A model generated the notes under the pieces. It ran no database searches. It was not told where the DNA came from and saw only the letters and a program-made list of their open reading frames with translations. Of a stretch of DNA of 64,000 bases, positions 1,093 through 45,111 are shown in pieces. The position numbers were made by a program, and so were the translations under genes. The DNA is taken from positions 18,279 through 82,278 of IMG/VR virus record IMGVR_UViG_3300045988_051379. One strand, 5' to 3'. The DNA comes from a virus. Position 1 is the first letter of the stretch. Each line of letters begins with the position of its first letter.

Positions 1093-1178
1093 AGATTTCT
1101 AATGAGCTTTAATTATACTTTACTTTTAATATCTCAAATCCCAGTTTGAAAGATACTCTATGATTATGAACTAGCTCA

Positions 1179-2796: not shown

Positions 2797-2957
2797 TAAT
2801 CTACTGATTTAAAGGTTAGAGATTAATAATAGTTTAGTTTCTTTATTACTTATTTACATTGACACCTTAAATCATTAATTCATCTGATTTGTTTGATAAT
2901 GTGCAAATTTAGCAATACCTTTGTGAATAAAAAAGTGATTTAACATGTAATTTAATT

Positions 2958-3257
2958 ATGGAATTTAACGCAGAGGAATTATCAAGAATTAATGAGGCTC
3001 TGAAAGAGTTACTCGATGATGCGGACCTAGAAGAGGTTCCCATGTTTAGATGTGGTAGTAAGTTAGTAAGGAAAGATAAAAATGGAAGCAAGATTCATAT
3101 TAAGAAGAAGAATCGCGGCAAATTTACGGCATCAGCTAAGAAAGCTGGACAGAGTGTTCAAGAACATGCTAGGTCTGTACTTAACAATCCTAATGCGACT
3201 CCGTTACAGAAGAAGAGAGCTAATTTCGCTAGAAATGCCGCCAAATGGAAGCATTAA
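2958..3257 (+). CDS. hypothetical basic protein
   Basis: 99-aa ORF, Lys/Arg-rich C-terminus; no family recognised. Confidence 0.35.
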   Translation: MEFNAEELSRINEALKELLDDADLEEVPMFRCGSKLVRKDKNGSKIHIKKKNRGKFTASAKKAGQSVQEHARSVLNNPNATPLQKKRANFARNAAKWKH

Positions 3258-3625
3258 CTATGAAATTTAAGTACGACAAATCTAAAGGATTGCTATTCTT
3301 TATCAATCCGTTACTTCCGGTAAAAGGATATTCATTTATGAATATTTGTGCTATTATGTTTACTAGAAGTGAGGATTATATAAAGAGAATGACTCAAGCT
3401 ACAGTTACACATGAGAAGACTCACACAAAACAGATATTAGAAATGGGAATAGTATTCTTCTATTTATGGTATGTAATAGAGTGGTTTATTAAATTACTAG
3501 CTAGTGGCAATGCTCACACTGCCTATAGAAACATATCATTTGAAAGGGAAGCTAGGTATGTAGCTGAACATCCTGAATACGAGAGGAAGACTTTCAGCTA
3601 TGGCTGGTTTAAATGGATATTATGA
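3245..3625 (+). CDS. membrane protein with HExxH motif (possible metallopeptidase-like)
   Basis: HEKTH motif followed by hydrophobic helices; weak. Confidence 0.25.
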   Translation: MEALTMKFKYDKSKGLLFFINPLLPVKGYSFMNICAIMFTRSEDYIKRMTQATVTHEKTHTKQILEMGIVFFYLWYVIEWFIKLLASGNAHTAYRNISFEREARYVAEHPEYERKTFSYGWFKWIL

Positions 3626-4452
3626 GAATCTCAACTAAAGGAAGAGGGATTATTAGGGCACAACAGGGAGCTGTAGCAAGACCTAATCCTAAAGAGAATT
3701 ATAAATTGCCAGAGGACCAGAGATATCAAGCCCAAACTAGAGGGATGAAAGACTTTGCTATAGAATGGTATAAAGAACGTGCTAAACAGCCTAAGTATCA
3801 ATCTCAAGTTAATGAATCTAACCTTGCTAACATTACTGACCAAATTAACAGGGCAGAATATGTAGAACCTTCTAAGTTCTATTCTAATCCAAATGTATAT
3901 AAAGGGAAGGTTGGTAATGTGACTCAAGCTGCCCAAGTAGCTATGAGACAAAATAAGGGAGCAGCATATCCAGCAGGATTGCAATACACATACAATGCTC
4001 CTTCATTCCCATTCTCTGGAAGATTTAGCCATGTGTCTTGGCATGAAGGTATTGGACACATGGTTGGAGATAATAATCCGCAGATATTAAAGGCCAATCC
4101 TGGTATTAATAACAGAGTGGATTATGAATCCTCTACACCATTAGAGTCTCAAGTGTACAGCTCCCAACCTAATGAAAGACATGCGGACACGTGGGGATTT
4201 AGAGGAGCCAATGTAAATATGAAAGATGCGAATGGTAATTATTATATTGACCCTAATAGGCAATTAAAAGGTACAGATATTCAGGAGATGAGAACTAAGG
4301 GAGCTAAAATACCTTCAGGGTTTAATACCCTTAGTGATGACGAGATAGCTAAACTGCATAATACCTTCGCTAGTAATGCTAACAACAAAAGAAGTAATAC
4401 TATGCTAATAGCTAAGAGAGGTGTGCAAATTAAACGTAGAATTATTAAATAA
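3613..4452 (+). CDS. hypothetical protein (G/N/Q/Y-rich, possibly virion-associated)
   Basis: 279-aa ORF upstream of the large tail/virion protein; no motif. Confidence 0.35.
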   Translation: MDIMRISTKGRGIIRAQQGAVARPNPKENYKLPEDQRYQAQTRGMKDFAIEWYKERAKQPKYQSQVNESNLANITDQINRAEYVEPSKFYSNPNVYKGKVGNVTQAAQVAMRQNKGAAYPAGLQYTYNAPSFPFSGRFSHVSWHEGIGHMVGDNNPQILKANPGINNRVDYESSTPLESQVYSSQPNERHADTWGFRGANVNMKDANGNYYIDPNRQLKGTDIQEMRTKGAKIPSGFNTLSDDEIAKLHNTFASNANNKRSNTMLIAKRGVQIKRRIIK

Positions 4453-4460
4453 TAACAATC

Positions 4461-4852
4461 ATGGCTTTAATTCAAAATGAAGACAACAAATGCCCTACCA
4501 CTAAACAAGTGAATGACGCACTCAAGTCTATGGGGGGGGGGTTCAGACCCTAGTTTTAACAACACAAGATTTGATTTATCCAGGTAGAAGTAGTAATATA
4601 GAGGTTAACAGTGCTGATAGTGCTGTAATGGAGATTGTGAAGTCTAATATGACAGACATGGTCCCATTTCAGTTACTGTATTATGGAGTATCTAATGGTA
4701 CGCCAACATGTATTAGTGTGACAATAGTCGGAATTCCAATAGCTAATATGTTCACATTATACGTAAATGTAAATCAAGGTGGTTTACAGCACTTTAGCCT
4801 TAACAAAGGCCCCAATCAAAAGTGGATTGCTTCTACACTTAGTAATTCTTAA
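4461..4852 (+). CDS. small protein split by a frameshift at a G10 tract (4461..4553 continues in another frame as 4517..4852)
   Basis: ATG at 4461 reads MALIQNEDNKCPTTKQVNDALKSMGGG, then a stop. A +1 G in the 4532..4541 tract joins it in frame to the 93-aa ORF with no intervening stop. Confidence 0.35.
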
Positions 4853-4973
4853 CATTTAAGAATTAAAGTACATTAATCGCAGTATGCCAATCTGGGGTAA
4901 CTACTGAAATACCAATAAATCAGGCATATATAGGAGGTGACACAGCTAATATTTCTATAAATGTAATTATATA

Positions 4974-5216
4974 ATGAAGTTTGTAACATTCTTAAAGCAA
5001 GTATTCACATCCCACTCTGGCATATCATCTAAGAGACTCTGCGGAGTAGTAGGGTGGTTTGTCTGCTTGGGAGTGTTAATATACTGTGCAATAAACGTAA
5101 TTCAAGCCCCATTAATGATAGACACAGTCCTGTTGTGTTGTATGGGATTGCTTGGCATAGATTCAGTAACAGGAATATGGAAGAGATTCACCAATAACGA
5201 TAAATCGAATAAATAA
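4974..5216 (+). CDS. small two-TM membrane protein
   Basis: 80 aa with two hydrophobic helices, immediately upstream of the large glucosaminidase-domain protein. Confidence 0.35.
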   Translation: MKFVTFLKQVFTSHSGISSKRLCGVVGWFVCLGVLIYCAINVIQAPLMIDTVLLCCMGLLGIDSVTGIWKRFTNNDKSNK

Positions 5217-9773: not shown

Positions 9774-10098
9774 TTAATGTTGATGAAGTGGAGGAGATGT
9801 ATTAATTCACACTTGTATGTAATTAATGAGTTATGGAGAATGATAGGCTAAATGAAATTAGGGAATTAAATCCAGATTATGATATTAGTATGCATGAGCT
9901 AGATGTTTGTGTAGGAGACAATCAATATAGGCTAATGTATTATGTGTATGTTCAGCATAAAGAATCTGGAATAGGTGGAGTCCTTATAACGAGGAGGAGC
10001 GTAAACAAGTAATTAAACTGTTTAACTCTGGCACTTGGTATGATACATTTGGAGCTTTAAAGAATTTATATTATGAAAGAACTCCCAAAGGCTTAAGA

Positions 10099-10425
10099 AT
10101 GTGTAACCTTACTGGTAAATCTTTACAAGATAATGTTCTAGGATATATAGAAGATATTATTTTGAATATAAAAGACCATTATGAAACATTTGCTGTTATT
10201 CCTAGAGGTAAATCTAAATTACAAGTTTATATGACAATAAGCAATGGAACAAATGGAGCTGAAGGATGTATTATTAATTCTATGGAAGATGTTCTAAATG
10301 TGCTTAAAAACTTAAGGAAATATAAAGGAGTAAATTGGTCACAGCTACTGGAAGTTGGGATAGATAATGCAGATGATTTATATTGGTGGTACGTGACATT
10401 CTCTATAGACACTACAGCTATATAA
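10099..10425 (+). CDS. hypothetical protein
   Basis: ORF in track; no motif. Confidence 0.3.
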   Translation: MCNLTGKSLQDNVLGYIEDIILNIKDHYETFAVIPRGKSKLQVYMTISNGTNGAEGCIINSMEDVLNVLKNLRKYKGVNWSQLLEVGIDNADDLYWWYVTFSIDTTAI

Positions 10426-10556
10426 TAAAATTGATACCAGCCAGTAGATGCTAGGCACAAAGCCTAAGATAGTTTTTACATCTTCGTCTTGGTGGTCTAC
10501 GCCAGTGTGCTCTGACGTATTCCCACTTACCGAGACGGAATCTTATTATAAACAAC

Positions 10557-10594
10557 AAAGCCCGAACTTAGTTTAATTACTAGGCTCGGGCTTT
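10557..10594. terminator. bidirectional hairpin between convergent genes
   Basis: AAAGCCCGA ... TCGGGCTTT inverted repeat flanked by A/T runs between the + gene ending at 10425 and the - gene ending at 10609. Confidence 0.45.
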
Positions 10595-10608
10595 ATTATA
10601 TCAACCTG

Positions 10609-11692
10609 TTATGTATTAATTTTAATTACTTGTCTAGAATAGTCAGGCAAGTCAAGTATTTTATTACTTTGGTCAAATGTAGAAGCTGTATTCTGCAATA
10701 GGAGTCTTTTAGTTCCATTCGAACCAATTGCATACCAATTTGAATCTACATATATTAAATCAGTAAGAGTATATTCACCTAGTGTAGATGTAGTCCAATT
10801 ATTACCCCTATCTGTAGACACACTCTTCATATTATTTCCTATAAGCATAAATGTATTAGTCCCAGCTTCATTTGCATACAAACCTTTAGTCAAAGCAGTT
10901 AGTTGTGGTCTAGTGGTTGCAGCAGTCCATTGAGTTCCAGTTGAGTTAGTACTAACGTATGTATAATTACTTGTAGTGCTATATACTACACTTCTTGGCG
11001 AAGAATGAAACCCTTGTATTACTGCATTTGGTGTAAACATTCCAGGAGTATAATAAGTAAGAGAATCTGGTACAGATGTAGCCAAGAAGGTATATATTCT
11101 AGCTCCTCCCTGATATGATGCCCCAACACAGCAGTAATCATAAGGCCCAGTTGATATGCTACTGACTGGACCTACAACACTACGCTCCTTTACTGTACCG
11201 TCATCATACACTATAATAACATAGTTCTTACCGTCTCTTCCTGCTCCCTTATAAAATACCCAGCCAGTAGAGAACCTAGCCAAGTGAGCATAATCATAAG
11301 CTCTTACAGTATCTTTGTATTTTAATTCCCACTGTTTGGTAGACTGATTAACTACATACAATCCTCCAAGCATAGACAATGCTCCAATTGCTTCACCTCC
11401 TCCAGCTATGTATACAAAATCCTCATGGCCGTCTATAGCTGGAATTTGAGCATAGGTACCACCGCCAGCAAAGTATAAACTACCTGTCTCCGCATTAATA
11501 AGGAATAGGTCTTTGTCTACAACTATATCTTCTTCTTTAACTAATTGATTTGGCTGGTAGTTACTAGACGCAACTACGCTACCCCAGAGACTAATTATGG
11601 TTTGGTAGTGAGGACAATACCCCCCCCTTCCCGTAATCTATATTCTTACCTGTTAATTCGTTTAATTTACTTTGTGTTACTATTCTACTCAT
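10609..11692 (-). CDS. tail fiber / receptor-binding-like protein, interrupted by a -1 frameshift at a G8 tract (plus-strand C8 at 11620..11627)
   Basis: Track ORF 10609..11379 is S/T/N-rich. Its reading frame stays stop-free for ~80 codons upstream to the homopolymer, where a 33-aa ORF starting at 11692 (MSRIVTQSKLNELTGKNIDYGKGG) joins. Confidence 0.45.
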
Positions 11693-11954
11693 GATTCTTG
11701 TATCGTTCTGTAATATTAACTAAATCTTTGTTGTCATGTAATAACTCTAGGAAAGCCTTGTCTACTGCTATATCAAATGCAGCATTAGTAATGATTGGTT
11801 CTTTATGCACTCTCTCAATCTCTTCTCTAATCATTTGTTCAGACAATTGAGTGTATAATCGTCTGGTATAATCATTATACCAAGGCTCTTTAAATGTTAC
11901 TATAATTTCTTCTCCTGTCATAAATATATTGTCTTTAGTAATCCAGGTAGGCAA
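11685..11954 (-). CDS. hypothetical protein
   Basis: ORF in track. Confidence 0.35.
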   Translation of the reverse strand: MPTWITKDNIFMTGEEIIVTFKEPWYNDYTRRLYTQLSEQMIREEIERVHKEPIITNAAFDIAVDKAFLELLHDNKDLVNITERYKNHE

Positions 11955-12167
11955 TACTTCCAGCCTGGATATATGTATGCATTCCTATACAATGCTTCTT
12001 CTACTAATTCTACTTCTTGTGTTATCATTGATTAGCCTTTGCTCTTGCTAAATAGTCTCTAGTTTGCCATCTGCCATCATATTCCATATCCCATGGAGCT
12101 ACCTTATTTAATAATTCTAGAGCTCTCTGGTCTACGTTATCATAATCACCTGGTATTTGTTCTAGTT

Positions 12168-12542
12168 TCATTGAAGTTTCTCTAAGTTCTTTACTATTGT
12201 GAATAGCTCATCTGGTTCGAATGATGTGATATCATTAATAACATCAACCATATACTCTTTAACTTCATCTAGAGTCATTATTTTAAATTCGTCCTTAGAT
12301 AGGCCTTTAGTTTTAATGAATTTACTAAATATGTCTACAATCTGGGCTAAGTTGTGCTTATCTTGTAAATAGAACTCACCCCTCTCGGGATGAGATGCTA
12401 ATTTAAATATATCTGCATTATCTGTAATTACTTGTTCATATTCCTCATCACTAAGAAGATTCATTAACGCTACAGCTTTATCATATAGCAATTTAACTTC
12501 CTTCTCTTCATACTGCTTATTAATTCTATTAATATGTCTCAT
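12168..12542 (-). CDS. hypothetical acidic protein
   Basis: ORF in track. Confidence 0.35.
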   Translation of the reverse strand: MRHINRINKQYEEKEVKLLYDKAVALMNLLSDEEYEQVITDNADIFKLASHPERGEFYLQDKHNLAQIVDIFSKFIKTKGLSKDEFKIMTLDEVKEYMVDVINDITSFEPDELFTIVKNLEKLQ

Positions 12543-12544
12543 TA

Positions 12545-12799
12545 TTAGCGAATGTTATTATAAATGCAAGATAGTTGCATTAAATATTCAATACCAGCTC
12601 CATTAGCTAGTCCGTCTTGCAATTTATTTAATAATTCTAATTTTACATCTGTTGTTTTATTGTCTAACTTCACCCAGTTAGTTGCCTTTGATTCATTACA
12701 TCCTAAATCAGTATTTACTGGACATTCTGACAAACTAGTCTTTAATATTTTTACTTCATCTACTTCTTTACTTGTTAAGTCTTTAACTTCTTTAGCCAT
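12545..12799 (-). CDS. hypothetical protein
   Basis: ORF in track; last leftward gene before the divergent control region. Confidence 0.35.
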   Translation of the reverse strand: MAKEVKDLTSKEVDEVKILKTSLSECPVNTDLGCNESKATNWVKLDNKTTDVKLELLNKLQDGLANGAGIEYLMQLSCIYNNIR

Positions 12800-12931
12800 T
12801 GGTATAAATTTTAGTTATTGTTAATAATTCTGATTTAAGTTCGCAAATATATTATTATTTAATTTGACAATACAAAATTAGTTATATATTTTAATATTAC
12901 CAAATGGTAATATAATTATTAATATATATTA

Positions 12932-13182
12932 TATATTGCCAATTCAAATTCACAGTTAATATTAAGTATATTGCCAACTCGGAACTCTATGACGCGCTGT
13001 GGCAATCTGCGCCCCTTCGGGGCTTGCTTGCAATTAGTAAGATGAATAGAAATTAATATATATTGCCAACTCACAAGTACGGGTGCTCAAAATCACACCC
13101 CTCCCACTCCCGGGGTGGGTTGTCATATTATATATTGCCAACTCGGATGCTGGGTGAATATTGCAAGATTTGTGTATATTGC
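12932..13182. promoter_or_regulatory. array of direct repeats (TATATTGCCAA(C/T)TC and shorter TATATTGC copies) interleaved with GC hairpins in a divergent intergenic region
   Basis: Full repeat at 12932, 12967, 13059, 13131; shorter copies at 13157 and 13175. GCCCC-TTC-GGGGC hairpin at 13011..13023 and CACCCC...GGGGTG at 13096..13117; direct C-rich repeat ACCCCTCAC x2 at 13200..13220. Confidence 0.45.
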
Positions 13183-13455
13183 GGATACGACAGGCGTGTT
13201 ACCCCTCACACCCCTCACCCATGTTTGGAGAAAATCAAAAGATTTATATCATTTGGTTTTGCTTTATAATATTCATTTTAAAATTATTAGAGTTATGTTT
13301 ACTTATCTTTCAAACGGTTATGTTTTAGTTAATGCTACGCGTTGTATAATCACACGTGAAGAATGTGAAGAAATTAAAGCAAATCTAATTTAAAAGCTAA
13401 TCAGAACGGGCAAATAAGCTCGTTCTATATTGTTTCACTAATAAATTATTAAACT

Positions 13456-17873: not shown

Positions 17874-18116
17874 ATGGATATAAAGAACAGCCCTATAGTT
17901 AAACATGCAATTAACAATGACAAATCTCTTCTTCCCGGAATCATCGCTTACAGCTGCAAAGAAGCTATGGTAATGGCTAAGAGAGAATGCGGTGATTTTA
18001 TAGACTTCGCCAAGGAGTGGATACAGTCCTCCAAACAGCTTTGCGAAGAAGAGAACATTCCATGGGAACAGATTAGGGCAGCAACTGGAGATTCTATTGA
18101 TAATTATATGTCATAA
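17874..18116 (+). CDS. hypothetical protein
   Basis: ORF in track. Confidence 0.35.
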   Translation: MDIKNSPIVKHAINNDKSLLPGIIAYSCKEAMVMAKRECGDFIDFAKEWIQSSKQLCEEENIPWEQIRAATGDSIDNYMS

Positions 18117-18130
18117 TCTCCTTTCCGTCT

Positions 18131-18210
18131 AAAAGAGAGTCTGATGAGTCGTTGAAAATTACGACGAAACTTCACTATGATTTGGCACGTCACGGTGGAG
18201 TCACTCTTAA
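18131..18210 (+). ncRNA. type I hammerhead ribozyme
   Basis: CUGAUGA core (18141..18147). Helix II GTCG/CGAC with a 10-nt loop. GAAAC follows at 18166..18170. Helix III is 7 bp (ACTTCAC / GTGGAGT). GUC cleavage triplet sits at 18200..18202. Helix I pairs AGAGAGT (18134..18140) with ACTCTT (18203..18208). Confidence 0.55.
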
Positions 18211-18225
18211 CCAATATTAGTAATT

Positions 18226-18387
18226 ATGAAACTCACTAAGAATAAAAAAGACAATATAATAATTAGTTCTGCTATTGGAGCATTAGTAATTATTAATATC
18301 ATGTTACCCACAGCTGGCGATTTTACATATGTAGTCGGAGCTATAGGTATTGTTGCGGCCATAGGAGTCTGGTTCTTACCAGATTAA
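18226..18387 (+). CDS. small two-TM membrane peptide
   Basis: 53-aa ORF below the track threshold, two hydrophobic helices. Confidence 0.3.
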   Translation: MKLTKNKKDNIIISSAIGALVIINIMLPTAGDFTYVVGAIGIVAAIGVWFLPD

Positions 18388-18428
18388 TCAAATAATTAAT
18401 AAATCAAACTCTTTAAATTTAGAAGGAA

Positions 18429-19040
18429 ATGAAGAAATTACAAGAACGCCTGAAAGCTGGTATTGATTTCAATCCAAAGAAAGACCCATGCTATGATTCT
18501 ATCGTAGAAGAAGCTGAAACTATTCTTGGGCATGTGCTCGATGCCGCTGAAGGCAAAGAAGTTCCTTACAAGAACTTCACTGTTGGTGGCGGTTATGACG
18601 AAAGGAAAGACCGTGAAATCGTCATTGTTCGTGGTGACGGTGAAGACTTGCTCGTTATGGAAGTTAAAGACGAATCTATTCGTGTTCAACCTCATGAACG
18701 TCATGCTGTCACTCTGAATGAGGATGACGAAGCTTCTGCCCGTGAAATCTTTGACATTCTTATGAAAATGAGAGACCAAAGACAAGGCTCTACATTTAAA
18801 GTCGAAGAAGGCAAAAAAGCTTTGTTTGAGTTTCTGAAGGATATATCTAAGGCTATCGGTGCTGATGTTGAAGGTGTTGAAACGCCAGAAGAGCTATTAA
18901 AAGTTCTCAAGGCTAGAGAAGAAGGCATAGAAGATTTGATGCGTGAACAACGCATTCATCTTACTATGCACATGCTTGACTGTTCCCGTGAGAAGGCAGA
19001 GAAGATTGTAAAGAACTTTGAAGAAGCTGTGAAGCGTTAA
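18429..19040 (+). CDS. acidic hypothetical protein with GC-shifted codon usage
   Basis: 203 aa, E/D-rich; visibly more G/C at third positions than neighbours. Confidence 0.45.
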   Translation: MKKLQERLKAGIDFNPKKDPCYDSIVEEAETILGHVLDAAEGKEVPYKNFTVGGGYDERKDREIVIVRGDGEDLLVMEVKDESIRVQPHERHAVTLNEDDEASAREIFDILMKMRDQRQGSTFKVEEGKKALFEFLKDISKAIGADVEGVETPEELLKVLKAREEGIEDLMREQRIHLTMHMLDCSREKAEKIVKNFEEAVKR

Positions 19041-19049
19041 TAATGCCAA

Positions 19050-19121
19050 GAGAGGATTAGTTTAATGGTAGAAGGCTAGTTGCGAACTGGCGGAGGGAGT
19101 TCGAATCTCCCATCCTCTCCA
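19050..19121 (+). tRNA. tRNA (anticodon probably GCG, Arg; D-arm atypical)
   Basis: Acceptor GAGAGGA/TCCTCTC, T-arm GGGAG-TTCGAAT-CTCCC, anticodon stem GCTAG/CTGGC with loop TTGCGAA; the D-stem does not pair canonically. Confidence 0.45.
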
Positions 19122-19202
19122 ATCATCTTAAAGTTTTGTTTTATATTTTGAATTTGCCCAGTCATGTTGTGAAACACACTTGGGCTTTTAATTAATAAGT
19201 GT

Positions 19203-19556
19203 ATGAATCAGAATGCAGTTAATTCTTTAAGGAATGCCAAGAGGCATATTCTTATTAGCGATGTTGATAAGTTCAATAGCCATTTATTGTATTACATATT
19301 AAATGTTATATATGGAACACATGACCATATTAAATTAAATACGATACGTGAAAGACTTGAACGTGAGCTTAAATGGTCATTGGACGAGCATATTCCTGAT
19401 AAGGATGTAATTAGAGAATGGCTTGACAATGATTACCCTCTTATATGCATAACAGAGTTATCGTTTGACAGTTGTATTAAACTTGCCAACGATTTCCCAG
19501 ATTATGAAATTGTAGTTTATAGTTGGATGAAACATGAAGGGAACTTACCATTTTAA
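19203..19556 (+). CDS. hypothetical protein
   Basis: ORF in track. Confidence 0.35.
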   Translation: MNQNAVNSLRNAKRHILISDVDKFNSHLLYYILNVIYGTHDHIKLNTIRERLERELKWSLDEHIPDKDVIREWLDNDYPLICITELSFDSCIKLANDFPDYEIVVYSWMKHEGNLPF

Positions 19557-19692
19557 ATGGAATAAAAATAACTCCTAGGCTATTAAGTCTGTAATGGGTA
19601 CGCTACTCAATGTAGCACAGGAAGATACTGATAGCTTTTTTGTTCAGGTTTGAGAGACCTCCTGGCATGAGAGGATAATCATGCCGTTCTAT

Positions 19693-20248
19693 GGGCCTAG
19701 ATTTGGTTTTGACAGGCGATTACAAGTTAGTAAGACGTGTAGAGTTCGTACCAACTCTTTAATAATGATACAGCAATTTAAGTGGAAACACTGAAGTAAG
19801 AATGGCAGCCTAAGCTGCTGGCTTATCTATTAATTTAGCTCTAAGTCGGGTTAATTGGAGAGACCTAGAAACAGAAGAGGTGTGGGAAGAAGCGTATAGA
19901 GCAGCCCACTTAACTTGAAAGCCAAAGGTTAGTAAAGCTGAAATCTCCACTACCTATCTATGGGTTACAAATAGAAACGTTCTCCAACGTAAATGGAGTG
20001 GTGGAGGAGCGACTTCGGTCAGCCCAGGTTTGGAAGCGTCAGCTTCTGAACCTTTAAGTTTGGTAGTTTGTAAATTAGCTTTTGGTGTACTGGTTTGGCT
20101 ATTGCAGCCTAATTACCTGGTTCCAAGATAAGACTAGTAAAACTACCTACATGCTGAACTCAACAGCTGATGTAATAAAATAGAGACACACGTAATCTTA
20201 TTAATGAGGGTTGTTTGGACGGCGGTTCGACTCCGCCTAGGTCCACTA
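19693..20248 (+). ncRNA. ssrA: tmRNA (ssrA-like), about 550 nt
   Basis: 5' end GGGCCTAGATTTGGTTTTGACAGGCG matches the tmRNA 5' consensus GGGGcuGAUUcuGGaUUCGACgGG. 3' end GGACGGCGGTTCGACTCCGCC-TAGGTCC-A matches the E. coli ssrA 3' tRNA-like half. The acceptor pairs GGGCCTA/TAGGTCC. The region has no ORF of 60 aa or more with a Met start. A candidate tag ORF ends ...EVRMAA-stop at 19811..19813. Confidence 0.6.
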
Positions 20249-21749: not shown

Positions 21750-22129
21750 ATCCACTATTGACGAATGGTGGTAGCAAAACTTGGTCTGAAGAACCAATAG
21801 ACATATTCCGGAGTATGTCTATGACTTAAAGGCTATATCAAAGAGTTGAAACCTGTATCTATTCGAACAGTAGGAGTTCACCTGATTAAGCATCAGGAAA
21901 CAGTAGTGCAAATCTACTATAGATATTGTGTATAAGAGAGAATCTACACGGTCTGTATTATATAATCAGCATACAGATAGGTCACCAAGCAAACCTCTTT
22001 CCTGCCTGGTCAAGTGTGCATTACGGTCTGTAAGTGGCGAGCGGGTTAACGTATGTCCGATTGCCGTAATGCCGCTTGTTTATTGTTTAGAATAAAGAAA
22101 GACTCTCATAACAATAAATTTAACAAGAG

Positions 22130-23987: not shown

Positions 23988-24061
23988 AGAGATATAGTTC
24001 AGTGGTAGAACAGCTAAAGTCAATCTTTAGAAGAACATCAGTTCGAATCTGGTTATCTCTA
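23988..24061 (+). tRNA. tRNA-like (anticodon CAA as read; non-canonical junction)
   Basis: Acceptor AGAGATA/TATCTCT, D-arm GTTC-AGTGGTA-GAAC, anticodon stem CTAAA/TTTAG with loop GTCAATC, T-arm ATCAG-TTCGAAT-CTGGT. Two nt lie between the D and anticodon stems, and the variable loop is short for Leu. Confidence 0.45.
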
Positions 24062-24163
24062 CACCATTTTATTAATATGATTCTTTCAACATATGCAGTG
24101 TCATTTCTATCTCGACTCATAGTCATTATTACGAGTTAAAGTATCTGCAATTGTTGAATAACT

Positions 24164-25471: not shown

Positions 25472-25774
25472 TTGATACATATTCTGATGAAGAGATTGTA
25501 TGTGCTAATAGACCAGAAGCTTGATGCAGTTTATGGTTGTGTACAAGGAGGTCATGCAGTAGCACAGTGGTTATTAGAACATCCTAATCAAGAGTGGAAT
25601 AATAGCTATTTAATCTACTTATATGCAGACTTAGACAAATGGAAAGTAAGATTAGACTTAGTAAATAAGGACTATTCTTCATTCTATGAACCAGACCTTG
25701 GTAATCAATTAACAGCAATCGCATTACAAGATGACGGTCGCATGTTCAAGAAACTTAAATTAGTAAGAGAATGA
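25472..25774 (+). CDS. hypothetical protein, weak PTH2-like (peptidyl-tRNA hydrolase 2) motif
   Basis: LYVLIDQKLDAVYGCVQGGHAVA loosely resembles the Pth2 vvRtDLkMgkGKiaAQcsHA segment; low confidence. Confidence 0.25.
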   Translation: MIHILMKRLYVLIDQKLDAVYGCVQGGHAVAQWLLEHPNQEWNNSYLIYLYADLDKWKVRLDLVNKDYSSFYEPDLGNQLTAIALQDDGRMFKKLKLVRE

Positions 25775-26088
25775 TATACAAACGAGATTATTATGTTAGT
25801 GTAGGAGATGACCATGTAGTTATCACTAAGAACCCTAATCCTCATTTAACTACATTAGAGGACTTAAATGACCTCAACAAGAGGTATCTTTACAGAGAAG
25901 GGCAGAAGATTCTAACTCCTTTTGGCATTGAAACCATTAAGGAGATTATTAGAACTCATAGCAAACAACGTGGCTACGAATGGTTAATCCTTGTAGAAGA
26001 GAATGGAAACCAATATACTCCATTTGAACTAAATGGCATAGTAGTCAAGGAACTTACACTTGAACAGTGGAATCAAATTATCGAATAG
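25771..26088 (+). CDS. hypothetical protein
   Basis: ORF in track. Confidence 0.3.
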   Translation: MIYKRDYYVSVGDDHVVITKNPNPHLTTLEDLNDLNKRYLYREGQKILTPFGIETIKEIIRTHSKQRGYEWLILVEENGNQYTPFELNGIVVKELTLEQWNQIIE

Positions 26089-26125: not shown

Positions 26126-26197
26126 GCCCCATTACTTCAGTGGTAGAAGAGCAAATTCTAAACTTGTATGGCGTTGGTTCGAGTCCAACATGGGGCA
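26126..26197 (+). tRNA. suppressor tRNA-Sup (CTA, amber)
   Basis: Canonical 72-nt cloverleaf: acceptor GCCCCAT/ATGGGGC, D-arm CTTC-AGTGGTA-GAAG, anticodon loop TTCTAAA (anticodon CTA at 26158..26160), T-arm GTTGG-TTCGAGT-CCAAC. Confidence 0.6.
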
Positions 26198-26200
26198 CTT

Positions 26201-26289
26201 GCGGGCGAGTGGAACGGATATACAAACCATCCTGGTCTCATAAGCCACGGGATAGCGGGTTCGACTCCCGCGCTCCGCAACTACAATCA
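26201..26289 (+). tRNA. tRNA-like element (possible CAT anticodon), non-canonical, maybe pseudogene
   Basis: Good T-arm GCGGG-TTCGACT-CCCGC; acceptor only 5/7 paired; candidate anticodon arm TGGT-CTCATAA-GCCA; D region too long. Confidence 0.3.
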
Positions 26290-26381: not shown

Positions 26382-26455
26382 GGGTGTATAACTCAGGTGG
26401 TAGAGTAACACGCTGATAACGTGTAAGTCCTTGGTTCACCCACAATACAACAATT
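26382..26455 (+). tRNA. tRNA-Ile (GAT), aberrant T-arm
   Basis: D-arm ACTC-AGGTGGTA-GAGT and anticodon arm ACACG-CTGATAA-CGTGT are canonical; T-stem and acceptor 3' strand pair poorly. Confidence 0.45.
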
Positions 26456-28303: not shown

Positions 28304-28352
28304 AATTATCGTATGAAAGGAATTAATTTAACAGGATTGGACATGAAGAAGT

Positions 28353-28703
28353 TTGTTGGAACCGGCTACAACCCGTCTCAAGACATTATTAACACTAATG
28401 GTAGAGACGATGGAAGAACTAAGAACGGAGAAACTGAAGGATTCACTAATCCAAAGAAACAAAAGGTGGAGGAACCTAAAGAAAGACCAGAAGTATATTA
28501 CTAGGATTAAACTCCACGCTGCCTACTGGTATAATCCAGATAAAACGGCAAGAGGTAGACATTGGACAGAATTATATAATTCTAAATATACGTTTGCCTA
28601 TAAAACAACCAGTACTCCTTGTAGTTGTCCTATATGTAAAGGAGAACGCTATAATAGGAGACAGTTTAAGAAAGAGACAAGAGAATTACTTAATCTAGAA
28701 TAA
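28353..28703 (+). CDS. hypothetical basic protein with CxC...CxxC
   Basis: ORF in track; CSCPICKGE motif. Confidence 0.3.
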   Translation: MLEPATTRLKTLLTLMVETMEELRTEKLKDSLIQRNKRWRNLKKDQKYITRIKLHAAYWYNPDKTARGRHWTELYNSKYTFAYKTTSTPCSCPICKGERYNRRQFKKETRELLNLE

Positions 28704-31030: not shown

Positions 31031-32992
31031 ATGGAAATGACATCATTAATTATCGTTGGTGTAGTTGTACTAGTTGCAATCATCACTATCATTGGGATTC
31101 TATCCCGCTACCGTAAATGTAAATCTGACGAATTGTTGGTAGTTTATGGTAAAACAGGTTCTCATAAAGAGAAAGTTAGCGAACGCGATGCTAAAGGTAA
31201 TCTGGTTGACAGAGAAGTTGAAATTAAAACTGCCAAGGTTTATCATGGTGGTGCAGCTTTTGTATGGCCGATTATACAGGGTTACGAAGTAATGTCAATG
31301 CAGCCGATTCAATTGAATCTTGTATTGAAGAATGCTTTGTCAGCTCAAAATATTCGTGTAACTATTCCTACTACTGTAACTGTTGCTATTAGCCAGGAAC
31401 CGCTGATTATGCAGAATGCTGCTAATCGCTTACTAGGTGCTGATGATGACGTTAAAGAAAGTTTGATTTCAGATATTGTTTATGGTCAGATGAGGCTTGT
31501 TATTGCTTCGATGACTATTGAAGAGCTTAACTCTGACAGAGACAAGTTCCTAGCTCAAGCTAGAGACAATATCAATACGGAATTGAACAAACTTGGTCTT
31601 TATCTGATGAATATCAATATCAGTGACATTCAAGATGCTGCTCAATATATTGATAATCTTGGTAAGAAAGAAGAGACTAAAGCAAGAGCGCAATCACAAG
31701 CTGATATCGCAGAAGAAGAGAAGAAAGGAGCAATCCAGATAGCTCAAACTACGAGAGAGAAGGAGATTGCAATTGCAGCAGCTACTAAGGAGCAAGAAAC
31801 TATAGTGGCTGAAACTAACAGGGAGAAAGAAGTTGCTATTGCTAAGACCACTAAAGAGAAAGAAACTCAATTGGCCGAGCAGCATAAGGAACAACAAATT
31901 GCTGTTGCAGAGCAAAGAAAGGAACGTGAAATTGGTGTGGCTACAGCCCAAACTGAAGAAGCTTCCAAAGTTGCCGAGCAAGAAGCATTGAGAGCTGCCA
32001 AGATTGCAGAGCAGCAAGCTTATGCAACTGCTAAAGAAGCAGAATTTACTGCCAAAGCTGAAGCCGCTAGGGCAGAAGCAGAAGCAGAGAAGGAAGTTCG
32101 TATGGCAGTAGCAGCACAAAACCAAGAAGCTGAAACTGTTAAAGCACAGCAGGAGAAAGAAGCTAAAACTGCACAGTATGAATCAGAAGCCCGTCAAAAG
32201 GCAGCTGAAGCAGAGAAAGCAGCAGGAGTAGCTGAACAGAAAGCTACTATTGAAGTTTCCAAAGCTAAGGGAGAAGCAGAGAAAGCTAAAGCTGAAGCTG
32301 AAAGAGTAGCTGGTACTTCCAAAGTTGAAGCTCAAATGGCAGTTGCTAAAACAGAGCAGGAACGTCAGGTAGAAGTTAATGAAGCTAAAGCTAAAGCTGA
32401 AGAAGCTAAGCTTAAAGCTGAAGTAATTATACCTGCCGAGAAGGCCAAAGAGAAAGCTAAGATTGAAGCAGAAGCTGTTAAGAGTGTAGCCATTCTTGAA
32501 GCAGAAGCGGAAGCAGCTAAAATCTTGAAAGCAGCAGAAGCTAAAGCAAATGCTACTAAGATGCAGCTGGAAGCAGAAGCTGAAGGTACCAAGAAGAAAC
32601 TTCTTGCTGAAGCTGAAGGTAAGAAAGCGTCTTTAATGGCAGAAGCTGAACAGAAACAGGCAATGGAAATGGCTCCGGCTCTTGCAGTTGAACATATGAT
32701 TAAATCAGGTATGCATCCTGAAGCAATCGTTCAATATGCAATGACCGACAGGTGGAAGGAAGTTGCTGAAGCCAACGCTAAGGTATTTGAACATATCCAG
32801 CTTGGTAATGTTACTGTGTATGGTGATTCCAACACTGCTGGACAGTTCATGGCTAATATGGCTAAGAATCTTGCTCCGAGTTTGGAAATTGCCCGTAATT
32901 TGCCTATTGCAGATTCGCTTAAGCAAATAATCACTGGCAAGAAGCCAGAAGAATCACCAGCTAAAGGTGATAATTTTCCTCCTGTAAAGTAA
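31031..32992 (+). CDS. flotillin-like SPFH/band-7 protein (FloT/YuaG/YqiK-like) with a long EA-rich coiled coil
   Basis: N-terminal TM then RYRKCKSDELLVVYGKTGS...VYHGGAAFVWPIIQ, matching the FloT KYRTAGPDEALIVTG...IVRGGGTFVLPVFQ region; ~300 aa of AEAEAK-type repeats. Confidence 0.6.
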   Translation: MEMTSLIIVGVVVLVAIITIIGILSRYRKCKSDELLVVYGKTGSHKEKVSERDAKGNLVDREVEIKTAKVYHGGAAFVWPIIQGYEVMSMQPIQLNLVLKNALSAQNIRVTIPTTVTVAISQEPLIMQNAANRLLGADDDVKESLISDIVYGQMRLVIASMTIEELNSDRDKFLAQARDNINTELNKLGLYLMNINISDIQDAAQYIDNLGKKEETKARAQSQADIAEEEKKGAIQIAQTTREKEIAIAAATKEQETIVAETNREKEVAIAKTTKEKETQLAEQHKEQQIAVAEQRKEREIGVATAQTEEASKVAEQEALRAAKIAEQQAYATAKEAEFTAKAEAARAEAEAEKEVRMAVAAQNQEAETVKAQQEKEAKTAQYESEARQKAAEAEKAAGVAEQKATIEVSKAKGEAEKAKAEAERVAGTSKVEAQMAVAKTEQERQVEVNEAKAKAEEAKLKAEVIIPAEKAKEKAKIEAEAVKSVAILEAEAEAAKILKAAEAKANATKMQLEAEAEGTKKKLLAEAEGKKASLMAEAEQKQAMEMAPALAVEHMIKSGMHPEAIVQYAMTDRWKEVAEANAKVFEHIQLGNVTVYGDSNTAGQFMANMAKNLAPSLEIARNLPIADSLKQIITGKKPEESPAKGDNFPPVK

Positions 32993-33079: not shown

Positions 33080-33167
33080 GGAGAGTTGGGTGAGTGGCTT
33101 AAACCAGTCCCCTGCTAAGGGACCGAACCTCAAAAGGGTTCCGCTGGTTCGAATCCAGCACTCTCCG
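33080..33167 (+). tRNA. tRNA-Ser (GCT), type II
   Basis: Anticodon arm GTCCC-CTGCTAA-GGGAC, long variable arm with GAACC/GGTTC stem, T-arm GCTGG-TTCGAAT-CCAGC. Confidence 0.8.
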
Positions 33168-33219
33168 CGCTGGCTAATAAGAGTTTGCGAAAATCATTAA
33201 TAACCTAATTATTAGAATT

Positions 33220-33617: not shown

Positions 33618-34511
33618 ATGAAAGAATATAACAAAGTATTCTTTGGCGAGAAGGGACTAACCCAAACTTCTGCCAATCACCTGGCTAATATAGCTAAGGA
33701 AACAGTAGAATCTAATAGACAAGCTTTAGATTCTGTAGGGTTTGTGAATGTCAATATTAGCTTGCTAAGTGGAGGTAACTCTAGGACTGTGAAGACAGGT
33801 AGAAATGAGGCATATCTTGATAATGTGCCCACATTACTTCAAGAAGTTGCTAATATGAATGCCTTCTGTGCATGGATTCGTGAAGCTATTAAGGCTAGAG
33901 AAGAAGAACTTGAAATTATTAACAGGTACACATGGGATTTATATGCTACAGACGTAGCTGGATTCAAGTTGGACACCCCGATTAAGGGTCATATCCTTAC
34001 CGAAGAGGAAGCAATTGCTTCATTGAGCATTGCAGAACGTATGGAATATTACAGACTAGAAGCAGAAGCATCTGCTATTGGTAAGTATATTCATCCAATG
34101 CGTCCGTTTGCAAACGCCCGTAGAGCTTTAATGGATGCCTATACTAATCCTACTAAGGTTGAAGGTTCTGGCACTGACACAATCGTGTACTCGTATGACC
34201 CGTCTGTTAGTAGCGATAAGGTAGAAGAAACATTCTTTGCATTACAGCAGAAACACAGAGACATATCAGCTAGACTTAATAAGATTAAGTTCAAGATTGA
34301 TAAAATGGTAAAGGATTCTGAATATGAAGTCAATCAGGCTTATAAACAAGCTGTTGATAGATTCAATTTGGATGCCAAAACCCTGTCTCAACAATGTGAA
34401 ACTTGGAAAGTTGAAGAACGTAAGAAACTATTGGAACTTAAGATAGTAATTCCTAATGAGTTACAAGCAACTTACGAGTTACTAACTAAGATTTCCAATC
34501 CAGATAAATAG
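33618..34511 (+). CDS. hypothetical protein
   Basis: 297-aa ORF; no motif. Confidence 0.4.
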   Translation: MKEYNKVFFGEKGLTQTSANHLANIAKETVESNRQALDSVGFVNVNISLLSGGNSRTVKTGRNEAYLDNVPTLLQEVANMNAFCAWIREAIKAREEELEIINRYTWDLYATDVAGFKLDTPIKGHILTEEEAIASLSIAERMEYYRLEAEASAIGKYIHPMRPFANARRALMDAYTNPTKVEGSGTDTIVYSYDPSVSSDKVEETFFALQQKHRDISARLNKIKFKIDKMVKDSEYEVNQAYKQAVDRFNLDAKTLSQQCETWKVEERKKLLELKIVIPNELQATYELLTKISNPDK

Positions 34512-36767: not shown

Positions 36768-37835
36768 ATGATTAGTATTGTATTAGGAACATTCTTTGGA
36801 GACGAAGGTAAGGGACAGACAGTTCACAACTTATGTAACAAGTACATAGGTAAGCGAGAGTCTGTATTAGTAGTCAGGTTTAGTGGTGGACATCAAGTAG
36901 GACATACTGTAAAGCATGGAGACATGATGCACACCTTTAGTAACTTTGGCAGCGGAACCTTACTTGGAGTGCCGACGTATTGGTCCGAATACTGTACTGT
37001 AGACCCAATTACCTCTATGTTAGAGGGTGCAGACTTAGCTAAAATGGGAGTTCATCCCATTGTTCAGTATCACCCTCACTGCCAAGTTGTAATTCCCTTC
37101 GATGTCTATTCCCAAGTTAATAATGAAGAGAACTTACGACATGGTACTGTAGGTACAGGGTTTAAAGCTTGTTTGGACCGAGTTAAGGCAGGATACAGCT
37201 TAACAGTTGTAGATTGTATGAATCCTTACATACTACGTGAGAAATTAAATGCCATAGTGGATAACTATTACAACATGTCTAGTAAATATCCCTCGATAGA
37301 CCTAGACAACTGGTGTAGGTTAGCACATGCTTATTTCTTACATACAGGTACGGTTAATGAAGATTGCTTGTTAAACTATGACAACCTAGTGTTTGAAGGT
37401 TCACAGGGAATATTGCTTGACCAAAGATTCGGCATAATGCCTTATTGCACTCCGTCTAATACAACTTCACAAAACGCTTACGAGCTGTTGCGGAAAGCAG
37501 GCATACGTAAAGAAATCCAAACTTGTTATGTAACTCGTCCTTATATAACAAGGCATGGTAACGGCCCATTTCCTTCTGGAATGTCTGTTAGGGATGTCGA
37601 TGACCCTAATAATAAGTTCAACGATTTCCAGAAGACGCTTAGGGCTATTGATTTCGACAAAGACCTATTCGCACACAGTGTACGCATTAACCGTTCATTT
37701 AAAGTTCCTTATAGGAATGAACGAACGGAGAAATTGTACGTATCACATTGGGATGAAGCATCTGACGCAGAGCAAGAAATGCTAGCGAATTTATGGATGT
37801 CAATACAACCCATGATATTCGATAAGTTAGTTTAG
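36768..37835 (+). CDS. adenylosuccinate synthetase (PurA)-like enzyme, C-terminally short; candidate PurZ (2-aminoadenine pathway)
   Basis: GDEGKGQ P-loop, RFSGGHQVGHT, FEGSQGILLDQRFGIMPYCTPSNTT and HGNGPFP match the PurA motifs GDEGKGK / GGHNAGHT / FEGAQGTLLD-TYPYVTSSNTT / GAGPFP. Only 355 aa versus ~430 for cellular PurA. Confidence 0.55.
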   Translation: MISIVLGTFFGDEGKGQTVHNLCNKYIGKRESVLVVRFSGGHQVGHTVKHGDMMHTFSNFGSGTLLGVPTYWSEYCTVDPITSMLEGADLAKMGVHPIVQYHPHCQVVIPFDVYSQVNNEENLRHGTVGTGFKACLDRVKAGYSLTVVDCMNPYILREKLNAIVDNYYNMSSKYPSIDLDNWCRLAHAYFLHTGTVNEDCLLNYDNLVFEGSQGILLDQRFGIMPYCTPSNTTSQNAYELLRKAGIRKEIQTCYVTRPYITRHGNGPFPSGMSVRDVDDPNNKFNDFQKTLRAIDFDKDLFAHSVRINRSFKVPYRNERTEKLYVSHWDEASDAEQEMLANLWMSIQPMIFDKLV

Positions 37836-41841: not shown

Positions 41842-42309
41842 GTGAAGCAAACGGGCATCAGCATAGTTAAACGAAGAAGTATAAATGCTAACGAAACCTT
41901 TAACAAGGGTAAGAAGTTAGTAACTAGAACCTGTTTGAATTGCGGTAAAGAATTAAGCAATCATAACAGTACTACTAAGTACTGTAACAACGTATGTCAA
42001 GCCGAGTACGAACATAAAGAGTACATTAGAAGATGGAAGGAAGGTAAAGAAACTGGTATGTGTGGAACTCGTTCCATTTCTAAACACATTAGGGATTATC
42101 TCATGGATAAACATGAGCGTAAGTGCCAAGTTTGTGGGTGGGATAAGATTCACCCGATTACAGGAGAACCTCCACTTCATGTTCACCACATAGATGGTGA
42201 TGCTACCAACAACTCAGAAGACAATCTACAGTTACTGTGTCCAAATTGTCACAGCTTAACTGAGAATTACGGACGATTAAATGCTAAAAGCACACGTCCA
42301 AAGAAATAA
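41842..42309 (+). CDS. HNH endonuclease (free-standing, homing-endonuclease-like)
   Basis: CLNCGK...HVHHIDGD...NLQLLCPNCH HNH/Zn-finger motifs. Confidence 0.6.
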   Translation: MKQTGISIVKRRSINANETFNKGKKLVTRTCLNCGKELSNHNSTTKYCNNVCQAEYEHKEYIRRWKEGKETGMCGTRSISKHIRDYLMDKHERKCQVCGWDKIHPITGEPPLHVHHIDGDATNNSEDNLQLLCPNCHSLTENYGRLNAKSTRPKK

Positions 42310-43926: not shown

Positions 43927-45111
43927 ATGAGTGAACGAAGACTTAAACTTGGTCATAGGAAAGAGTATAAACGTAAAAGCAAGCATACTCGTAATCCAAG
44001 TTACTATCCTAGACACCTTACTAAAGTGACGCTAGCTGATTTTGATGCTGATTTCAATTTGAGAGTGTCTAAAGAAGTAGCAGCGCAGAGAGGATATGGT
44101 AGAAAGGTATTAGACAAAAGTTGTCATATAGCTTGGGACCACGGTTATGGATACGTTAAAGAGTCTAGGATTGTGAAATTCATAGCCAAGTATGTAGGTA
44201 AGCCTTATAAAGAGCTAGCCAAAGCCTGGAATGAGTGGATTAAGCCAATTAAGAATACTGACAAAACTGAATACCTAGACGACTACTTCACCGATTATAG
44301 ATGGAGACAAGCTTTCTTTAGAGTTGATGATAATGGATTAGTACAATCTGTTGAACAGACTCCTAAGGGTCGTCGATATAACATTAGCACCAAGCAATGG
44401 AAGGAGAACAGGAATCATGCTTTGCCCAAGTTTGGTAAGATTGCTAAACCTCATAAAGCAGCAGACTATTATGATTACTGTTATGGATTTGCCAATTCTA
44501 ATCCTGACTCCAATGGAACAGACTCTAACTTTTATAGACCGAGGTTGCTAGGTCATTATTGGTGTATGGTTAATGGTACTCCAGTTGAGTTGCCAGTATA
44601 TCATGTACGTGATGCTCGTGACTATATAAGGTGGTGGTTAGACGGCAAGCAGGGTAGAATTCCTGGGACTAGAGAAGTAGTTAAAGTCGATACGTACCAG
44701 CAACTCTTTAGACCTGGAACTCATGCTTATGAACAAGCTGTTAAGTTTGATAACAACTGGGTTTATCTTCCGATTCCATGTAGCAAAGGAGGTTATATAG
44801 GTGAAACATCTAAGCATTTTATGCATTTAGAGACGGAGCAGATTCCTAATCCTAGATATGCAGAAATTCAAAGTAGCTTAGATGCTCTTACTAAGAGTGT
44901 AGAAGCAGGCATAACTGTTACATTCAGTGACGGAGTAACTCCTGTACCTATGGAGTATCTTACTAACGAAATTAACAATGCTCACTACCGTCTCTCCATG
45001 ACTTCTAGGTATATAACAGTTAATCACGGCTACGGACAGTTATATCCATTAGTAAAACGAATTGATTATGAAAGAACTATTCAAGAAATGGCTAGAGAAG
45101 CGAGCATGTAG
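43927..45111 (+). CDS. hypothetical protein with basic N-terminus
   Basis: 394-aa ORF; no motif. Confidence 0.4.
   Translation: MSERRLKLGHRKEYKRKSKHTRNPSYYPRHLTKVTLADFDADFNLRVSKEVAAQRGYGRKVLDKSCHIAWDHGYGYVKESRIVKFIAKYVGKPYKELAKAWNEWIKPIKNTDKTEYLDDYFTDYRWRQAFFRVDDNGLVQSVEQTPKGRRYNISTKQWKENRNHALPKFGKIAKPHKAADYYDYCYGFANSNPDSNGTDSNFYRPRLLGHYWCMVNGTPVELPVYHVRDARDYIRWWLDGKQGRIPGTREVVKVDTYQQLFRPGTHAYEQAVKFDNNWVYLPIPCSKGGYIGETSKHFMHLETEQIPNPRYAEIQSSLDALTKSVEAGITVTFSDGVTPVPMEYLTNEINNAHYRLSMTSRYITVNHGYGQLYPLVKRIDYERTIQEMAREASM

Follow-up and report, generated by a model that had tools for sequence, protein, structure and literature searches.

Silent CTA suppressors in Zeta crAss-like phages

The Zeta group of crAss-like phages was defined by Yutin et al. 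2021 (PMC7886860), with genomes of 145-192 kb, many introns and inteins, and branches on genetic code 11, 15 or 4. Suppressor transfer RNAs (tRNAs) without apparent codon reassignment were noted in this group, and the supplementary table of that study lists the genome OCHL01000028 (176,654 bp) as 'c11, zeta_9, Sup CTA'. In a later study (Int J Mol Sci 2025, PMC12386605), clade 8 of the proposed 'Echekviridae' comprised twelve genomes of 164-188 kb with a G+C content of 35.4-36.9% and Bacteroides as putative host; a CTA suppressor was carried by 11 of the 12 genomes, and suppression was found in none. The authors held that such long retention makes incipient recoding unlikely, and a weakening of the host or of host defences was proposed. 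In the present work, a tRNA gene with anticodon CUA was analysed in a 64,000-nucleotide stretch of viral DNA (positions 18,279 to 82,278 of IMG/VR record IMGVR_UViG_3300045988_051379), called the window below. The case belongs to the published and already described class of 'silent' CTA suppressors of standard-code Zeta crAss-like phages. Added here are evidence for purifying selection from compensatory changes, the lack of relationship between this tRNA and the glutamine (Gln)-type suppressors of recoded relatives, the demonstration that TAG is an ordinary stop in this genome, and the natural immunity of the late genes to suppression.

The phage resembles clade 8 in genome size (~179 kb against 164-188 kb), G+C content (36-37% against 35.4-36.9%), a block of 27-28 tRNAs, its origin in the human gut, the CTA suppressor and the absence of in-frame TAG. 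Nothing essential differs, and the match, including that of the window lineage to subclade 10, is by features, not by alignment. OCHL01000028 (locus L192 here) bears an orthologue of the CUA tRNA, of the sequence type called variant 2 below. The crAss-like affiliation is supported by the listing of this orthologue-bearing genome as zeta_9 (Yutin et al. 2021) and by a large terminase subunit (TerL) that is ~30% identical to Crassvirales TerL. Judged from these comparisons, the phage is a Zeta crAss-like phage of ~179 kb from the human gut. Its putative host is Bacteroides, as taken from the iPHoP predictions of the 2025 paper (PMC12386605) through the feature-based match to clade 8.

In the Agate clade, Borges et al. 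(2021/2022) described a standard-code relative with a TGA suppressor, a single genome that was read as a recent acquisition preceding code change. The present phage is similar in having a suppressor without recoding, in belonging to a clade that mixes codes 11, 15 and 4, and in preferring TAA stops; unlike the Agate case, its CUA suppressor is old enough to differ by a third of its bases across three lineages. The Gln-type suppressors of code-15 phages (crAss-like beta and zeta, Lak, phAss-1) share with it the CUA anticodon, A37 and A38, and a gut phage as carrier. These have U1-A72 and a paired 31-39 and lie near TerL in the loci seen, whereas the window tRNA has G1-C72, C2-G71 and A73, leaves 31-39 unpaired, lies in an early tRNA array and is accompanied by no TAG sense codons.

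The amber suppressors of Escherichia coli laboratory strains (supE, supF) are alike in that a CUA tRNA exists beside a minority of TAG-ending genes. Laboratory amber suppressors arise by a one-base anticodon change in a host sense tRNA; unlike them, the CUA tRNA had no homologue with a sense anticodon in viral (IMG/VR), metagenome or GTDB contigs. The costs of suppressors in E. coli strains are buffered by transfer-messenger RNA (tmRNA), and the phage likewise has a tmRNA-like gene.

The CUA tRNA gene

26126 to 26197, plus strand: 72-nt tRNA of the amber suppressor type, with anticodon CUA and discriminator A; supported by ARAGORN, Rfam RF00005 and orthologue covariation
26158 to 26160, plus strand: anticodon CTA in the loop TTCTAAA, read from the sequence; tRNA position 33 in ARAGORN

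The ARAGORN call spans 26126-26198 on the plus strand with anticodon cta, and Rfam RF00005 covers its full model on 26126-26197 with 62.7 bits (E=3e-11; gathering score 29). The anticodon CUA in a UUCUAAA loop, as originally predicted, was thus borne out by both ARAGORN and Rfam/Infernal. The acceptor strands are GCCCCAU and AUGGGGC, followed by the discriminator A; UA precedes the D arm (CUUC and GAAG around AGUGGUA), a single A precedes the anticodon arm (GCAAA and CUUGU around UUCUAAA), and the variable loop AUGGC leads into the T arm (GUUGG and CCAAC around UUCGAGU). The features of an elongator tRNA are present, including a 7-bp acceptor stem, a D arm with G18G19, a TTCGA T loop and a 7-nt anticodon loop. 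The description as a fully canonical 72-nt cloverleaf stands for the fold and the length; pair 31-39 is an A.C mismatch, the only one at this pair among the 27 ARAGORN tRNAs of the window, and CCA is not encoded, as is also the case in the neighbouring tRNAs.

The 'Pyl' label given by ARAGORN is an effect of the anticodon only. The gene lacks the architecture of a tRNA-Pyl: the anticodon stem has five positions with one mismatch and not 6 bp, the variable loop has 5 nt (3 in Pyl), the D loop has 7 nt with GG (5 nt and no GG in Pyl), and both U8 and A9 are present where Pyl has one base between the acceptor and D stems. No relatives of pylS or pylBCD were observed among the 39 window open reading frames (ORFs) scanned with Pfam, a scan that was not proteome-wide. 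A minus-strand 'Plastid-ycf2' Rfam match on the gene was sub-threshold and spurious, and promoter and terminator scans around the gene gave nothing above background.

Conservation of the CUA tRNA across diverged lineages

Sister loci were fetched through the neighbouring SPFH-domain gene and not through the tRNA itself. Two sister lineages were obtained, with 69-75% identity in the SPFH protein and 90-93% in TerL, and in both a CTA tRNA stands at the corresponding position, flanked by tRNA-Gly and tRNA-Ile. No contig of the three lineages that spans the locus lacks the gene. Among the three sequence types, as many as 24 of 73 positions differ (~33%, window against the variant-2 lineage), and 95.5% of the pair cells stay paired. 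Eight pairs were changed on both sides, namely one in the acceptor stem, one in the D stem, two in the anticodon stem, three in the T stem and the tertiary pair 19-56, where G19-C56 became A19-U56. When the 3' partners were slid by 1-3 columns, 24-49% were paired with at most one double change, and none of 500 shuffles matched the observed percentage paired, number of double-changed pairs or covariation score. Identity between lineages was 0.68 and 0.77 for the CUA tRNA, values that fall inside the 0.55-1.0 span of its sense neighbours.

A relaxed pattern in which the anticodon was left free was searched in IMG/VR, metagenomes and GTDB. It matched 27 IMG/VR contigs and 54 human-gut metagenome stretches, which fall into four variants, all with CTA followed by AAC; no other anticodon occurred among these matches, and no match was obtained in GTDB genomes. 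CTAAAC is invariant in the four variants, while positions 31-33 vary and the two bases 5' of the anticodon are UU, CC or UC. Because of the compensatory changes, the unchanged anticodon and a divergence like that of its sense neighbours, the CUA tRNA is regarded as a working gene; on this comparative evidence it is kept by selection, is not decaying and is almost certainly functional.

Genome reconstruction and genetic code

The window has a G+C content of 37%. GenBank scaffold MT835470, an unannotated sequence of 117 kb from human faeces, matches window positions 1-7470 at 97% identity and carries 107 kb further upstream. An ENA contig (178,205 bp) matches window positions 52716-64000 at 100% identity; past the window it runs on for another 7.9 kb and joins position 1 of MT835470. 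Since the contig joins the end of the window to the start of MT835470, the genome measures ~179 kb and is circular or terminally redundant. A composite of 179,201 bp (G+C 36-37%) was assembled from the window, the ENA contig and MT835470. The exact tRNA and full-length TerL occur together on eleven IMG/VR contigs, which places the tRNA and intact late genes in one genome. Megablast of the tRNA array against GenBank phages returned nothing beyond MT835470. Some tRNA-bearing IMG/VR and ENA contigs measure 202-338 kb (IMGVR_UViG_3300045988_069849, ERZ857922.2 NODE-2), well above ~179 kb, and are probably concatemers or chimeric assemblies. In many strains (L040-L048, L058, L061, L064, L086) the TerL match extends over 3,271 nt (10001-13271 or equivalent) against 2,274 nt, and this insertion of ~1 kb is in keeping with the many introns and inteins described in Zeta crAss-like phages.

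A simple codon-usage gene caller was run on the composite under codes 11, 15 and 4. Under code 11, 188 genes were called and 88.1% of the sequence was coding, against 87.1% with code 15 and 86.7% with code 4, so that the comparison of code 15 with code 11, set beforehand, gave no gain. The stops of the 188 genes are TAA in 125, TGA in 46 and TAG in 17. Reading TAG as sense restored no ORF anywhere in the reconstructed genome, an outcome that the original prediction had named as refuting, and every in-frame TAG of the code-15 ORFs sits within a few codons of the ORF end. The large window genes are intact under the standard code, as had been stated; the suggestion that recoding might affect other genes found no support. 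MT835470 holds a 74-kb late block on the minus strand with ORFs of up to 2,967 amino acids, in which TerL, portal, major head protein and tail fibre genes (PHROGs) are uninterrupted; no in-frame TAG was observed in the capsid and terminase genes, where it had been proposed to look, and the portal and tail genes are intact as well. The 41 late genes end in 37 TAA, 4 TGA and no TAG. No release-factor signature (GGQ context) was found in the genome. TAG is an ordinary minor stop, and the phage translates all its own genes in the standard code.

All 17 genes that end in TAG are early or middle ones outside the late block, 16 on the plus strand and one on the minus strand (window 11685-11954), and the extension from TAG to the next in-frame TAA or TGA has a median of 6 codons. 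Stops of all three kinds are mostly conserved across the sister lineages, with TAG gained in four genes and lost in three. Four of the TAG stops form part of TAGGAG and overlap a motif resembling a ribosome-binding site. Among the TAG-ending genes in the window are the following.

25771 to 26088, plus strand: gene directly upstream of the CUA tRNA; an in-frame stop follows 5 codons on, and TAG is kept in the L128 lineage
28313 to 28504, plus strand: gene with TGA one codon on; TAG is kept in all sister loci, which have TAA two codons past it
33618 to 34511, plus strand: gene for 297 amino acids; TAG is kept in sister lineages
36768 to 37835, plus strand: adenylosuccinate-synthetase-like gene; TAG is kept in sister lineages
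43927 to 45111, plus strand: gene for 394 amino acids; an in-frame stop follows 1 codon on
52956 to 53324, plus strand: gene with the longest in-frame extension, 57 hydrophobic codons to TAA

Proposed role of the CUA tRNA

On balance, we lean towards the view that the CUA tRNA, kept by selection in a standard-code Zeta phage, serves as a suppressor that acts on the translation of the host or of competitors. The proposed course of events draws on the following features.

19051 to 52459, plus strand: tRNA array including the CUA tRNA; 26 ARAGORN calls on the plus strand and one overlapping minus-strand call
26200 to 26279, plus strand: tRNA-like gene with a CAT anticodon loop (CTCATAA) and an enlarged D region; Rfam tRNA-Sec 20 bits, E=0.17, and alignment
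19693 to 20248, plus strand: tmRNA-like gene with a G3.U70 acceptor; Rfam RF00023 84 bits, not called by ARAGORN

The tRNA-like gene, which was missed by ARAGORN, begins two bases past the end of the 72-nt suppressor, and the two are probably co-transcribed. The CUA tRNA would be transcribed together with the array and processed along with this downstream neighbour, and trimming by RNase P and RNase Z, CCA addition and charging by a host synthetase would follow. The charged tRNA would insert an amino acid at UAG in competition with release factor 1 (RF1). With no TAG stop among the late genes and extensions of a median of 6 codons elsewhere, the cost to the phage would be small, as TAG-ending genes mostly meet the next stop soon. 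Messenger RNAs (mRNAs) of the host or of a co-infecting phage that end in UAG would be read through, and the likeliest benefit would be interference with the synthesis of host or defence proteins, or with competitors; buffering of nonsense mutations would be a secondary effect. Ribosomes that run to mRNA ends could be handled by the tmRNA-like gene, which is possibly relevant to their rescue. The unpaired 31-39 suggests that suppression would be of moderate efficiency only.

Several observations weigh against this role. Pair 31-39 is unformed in all variants (A.C or C.C), and U33, present in the window tRNA, is replaced by C33 in two variants; both would weaken a classical suppressor, and a 31-39 mismatch or C33 also occurs sporadically in a few other tRNAs of these phages. 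The invariance of the anticodon extends over only three deep lineages and is modest statistical evidence. Back-up stops are no closer after TAG than after TAA or TGA in the phage genes (median 6 against 7 codons, p=0.56). TGA is also depleted in the late genes, and the absence of TAG there may be only a preference for TAA. In addition, the sister lineages have kept TAG stops in early and middle genes and have even gained some, which is awkward for efficient suppression while those genes are translated. The benefit directed at the host is borrowed from published hypotheses, and an effect on the translation of the host or of others is put forward as the leading, unproven idea.

A bolder form of the idea was also considered, in which the tRNA would be a tool under active selection and no by-product of code evolution: a deliberately attenuated suppressor of non-Gln type with 31-39 kept unpaired, perhaps together with the tmRNA of the phage, would corrupt UAG-ending proteins of the host or of rivals, or would prematurely trigger the late genes of co-infecting code-15 relatives; this is thought rather unlikely. 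In a stranger variant of it, the loop of 9 nt would decode in a shifted or quadruplet register.

Recoded relatives and possible incipient recoding

The suppressor could instead be a first step towards code 15, in a genome poised for recoding, with TAG already cleared from the late genes and occasional TAG nonsense mutations detoxified until in-frame TAGs build up. We regard this as doubtful. The relatives of the phage were compared at two distances. TerL relatives at least 90% identical all use the standard code, and ~50 close-relative loci showed no TAG as sense around TerL. Relatives with 42-61% TerL identity (G+C 29-34%) are clearly recoded, from TAG to Gln or from TGA to Trp. Their coverage by ORFs of at least 150 amino acids is 0.17-0.60 under code 11; it rises to 0.77-0.97 in the TAG-recoded set when TAG is read as sense, and to 0.77-0.93 in the TGA-recoded set when TGA is. 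Their TerL genes contain 3-13 in-frame TAG, most often aligned with Q, or 5-6 in-frame TGA, aligned with W, Y or F. Several recoded relatives carry suppressors a few kb from TerL, and the association of such suppressors with TAG-to-Gln recoding in crAss-like phages, raised in the original prediction, is true of these family-level relatives.

The CTA suppressors near TerL in the relatives are Gln-like: their D arm is GGUGUAAUGG, and they have U1-A72 and pair 31 with 39. The CUA tRNA matches them at 43-50 of 73 bases, compared with 38-52 of 73 for unrelated sense tRNAs of the window and 44 of 73 for the tRNA-Gln of the phage itself. By this comparison, the CUA tRNA is unrelated to the Gln-like suppressors of the recoded relatives.

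The occurrence of code 15 or code 4 in relatives within the family and the absence of TAG among the 41 late stops are in keeping with incipient recoding, as are the report of standard-code relatives that gained a suppressor (Borges et al.) and the suggestion of an incipient code change by Yutin 2021 (PMC7886860). A TAG in place of TGG (Trp) in the C-terminal part of a lysin-like gene of strain L037 (below) also fits. Against it, three lineages with SPFH proteins 69-75% identical and tRNAs ~33% diverged keep the tRNA with zero recoded conserved genes, which is also the argument of the 2025 paper (PMC12386605); the tRNA is not of the Gln-like type that recoded relatives carry near TerL, and TAG stops are still being gained in these lineages.

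To find genes interrupted by TAG, ~2.4 Mb of close-relative loci were scanned for ORF pairs joined by one TAG. A recurrent pair of 171 and 185 codons upstream of the lysin-like gene was rejected as two separate genes; an ATG lies four codons past the TAG. In L037, a strain of a sister lineage, the lysin-like gene occupies forward positions 2092-4326 (reverse-complement 17931-20168) and is a homologue of the gene at window 5216-8059, which encodes a protein of 947 amino acids with a glucosaminidase domain and a C-terminus that varies between strains. At forward 2596-2598 the L037 gene reads TAG in place of the TGG of another strain, and the 169 in-frame codons that come next belong to a different gene family (a mosaic C-terminus). 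This was set aside as a TAG-joined pair and read as a TGG/TAG polymorphism in the mosaic C-terminus; the TAG could be a suppressed nonsense mutation or mark a pseudogene or an assembly chimera. In the more distant relative L129 (SPFH 48%), a Gln-like tRNA at 4523-4595 has the loop TTTTAAAA and the ARAGORN anticodon 'taaa', and may be an ochre suppressor or a tRNA with an 8-nt loop.

Possible readthrough of phage genes

Programmed readthrough of one TAG-ending phage gene, which would yield a C-terminally extended isoform, is improbable. Four window genes that end in TAG do so in the sister lineages as well, and the gene at 52956-53324 offers its 57 hydrophobic in-frame codons as a candidate extension; against this, most extensions are of 1-8 codons, stops of all three kinds are similarly conserved, several of the TAGs lie within the ribosome-binding-site-like TAGGAG, and no Pfam domain was found in the products tested.

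Amino-acid identity and decoding register

The body of the CUA tRNA (G1-C72, C2-G71, A73) is not Gln-like. Among the first 120 bacterial tRNAs found with the same acceptor stem and A73, 77 are Thr, 30 Arg and 11 Lys, and the evidence of the acceptor stem on the amino-acid identity is ambiguous. A Lys(CUU) anticodon is one mutation from CUA, and A73 together with U35 suits recognition by lysyl-tRNA synthetase under the E. coli identity rules; a Lys identity would fit. It is also conceivable that the tRNA arose from Arg(UCU) when the register shifted by one base.

It was also considered whether the tRNA reads UAG at all. With 31-39 unpaired, the effective loop has 9 nt (N-Y-Y-C-U-A-A-A-C), and another register (UCU or CCU, for Arg AGR), a quadruplet (UAGR) or a non-translational role, as a processing scaffold or decoy, could be imagined. 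The mismatch is conserved in 4 of 4 variants, variable loop bases occur only 5' of CUA, where the -1 register makes them the Arg wobble base (U/C), and three of the four variants keep U33 in that register. The string TTCTAA is also common to the loop of the tRNA-Arg(UCU) of the phage itself, and the GCCCCAU acceptor with A73 is found in bacterial Arg, Thr and Lys tRNAs. Such readings are nevertheless judged very unlikely: CUA falls in a standard 7-nt loop according to both ARAGORN and Infernal; A20, an identity base of Arg, is missing; tRNA-Arg genes with UCU and CCU are already encoded by the phage; and 31-39 mismatches and C33 are met elsewhere among the tRNAs of these phages. Decoding at TAG by a quadruplet or in +1 is unsupported, with A after TAG in only 1 of the 17 genes and a +1 reading that fuses genes in two cases, both ordinary overlaps.

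A relic, an alternative offered in the original prediction, would here go back to a recoded ancestor that reverted to the standard code, with the suppressor on its way to loss, and is the least probable explanation: the nearest TerL relatives found (57-61% identity) are TAG-recoded and the 31-39 mismatch and C33 variants are readable as decay, but this reading is largely refuted by the covariation, with eight compensatory pair changes including the tertiary pair and a constant anticodon in three diverged lineages, and is further disfavoured by a divergence equal to that of functional neighbour tRNAs, by presence in every locus-covering contig, by the lack of homology to the relatives' Gln-like suppressors, and by the same 31-39 mismatches or C33 in other tRNAs of these phages.

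The tRNA array and its neighbouring genes

No tRNAs were found in the part of the reconstructed genome outside the window. The tRNA-like gene next to the suppressor has a 14-nt D loop, and a related long form is kept in all three lineages; the window copy departs from this long form, and its acceptor pairs 6-67 and 7-66 are mismatched. Roughly half of the close relatives have a canonical 72-nt tRNA-Met in its place (ARAGORN), and the tRNA-like gene may be an Ile2 or Met tRNA of odd shape. Slightly further downstream lies a shortened tRNA-Ile.

26382 to 26442, plus strand: tRNA-Ile(GAT) copy with a 12-nt T-arm deletion in this strain; Rfam 40.4 bits, T arm missing

This gene is intact in relatives by alignment and ARAGORN, and the copy in this strain is probably a pseudogene.

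The tmRNA-like gene has 556 nt against a model of 374 positions and may hold an insertion; a possible tag ends in ...VRMAA followed by TAA. Between it and an ORF of 564 amino acids, whose function is not known, a RAGATH-34 RNA is located at 21752-21859 on the plus strand (118 bits). The tRNA-Leu(CAA) at 23988-24062 (plus strand) is of type I, with a short variable arm, and carries T37, which sets it apart from bacterial tRNA-Leu, and the anticodon of its L128 counterpart is undeterminable. At 33080-33183, a plus-strand tRNA-Ser(GCT) is overlapped by a minus-strand tRNA-Arg(TCG) at 33107-33183 (ARAGORN). Neither is reported by Rfam at its gathering threshold, the pair recurs in relatives, and the minus-strand call looks like a mirror artefact.

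Genes of other kinds are interspersed among the tRNAs. An HNH endonuclease ORF is present at 41842-42309 (plus strand), and this ORF and the differing distances between tRNAs in relatives suggest that mobile elements have been active within the array. Auxiliary genes amid the tRNAs encode an SPFH/Band-7 protein of 653 amino acids (31031-32992) and the adenylosuccinate-synthetase-like protein of 355 amino acids (36768-37835). Almost none of the ORFs near the CUA tRNA and of the TAG-ending ORFs were matched by Pfam.

Significance

Suppressor tRNAs of phages are usually taken as evidence of code change, and here one has long been kept without recoding. Since a suppressor can be maintained in this way, annotation pipelines should not switch to code 15 on the tRNA alone. 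For these abundant gut phages, putatively of Bacteroides, the finding implies a second, putative use of stop-codon suppression during infection.

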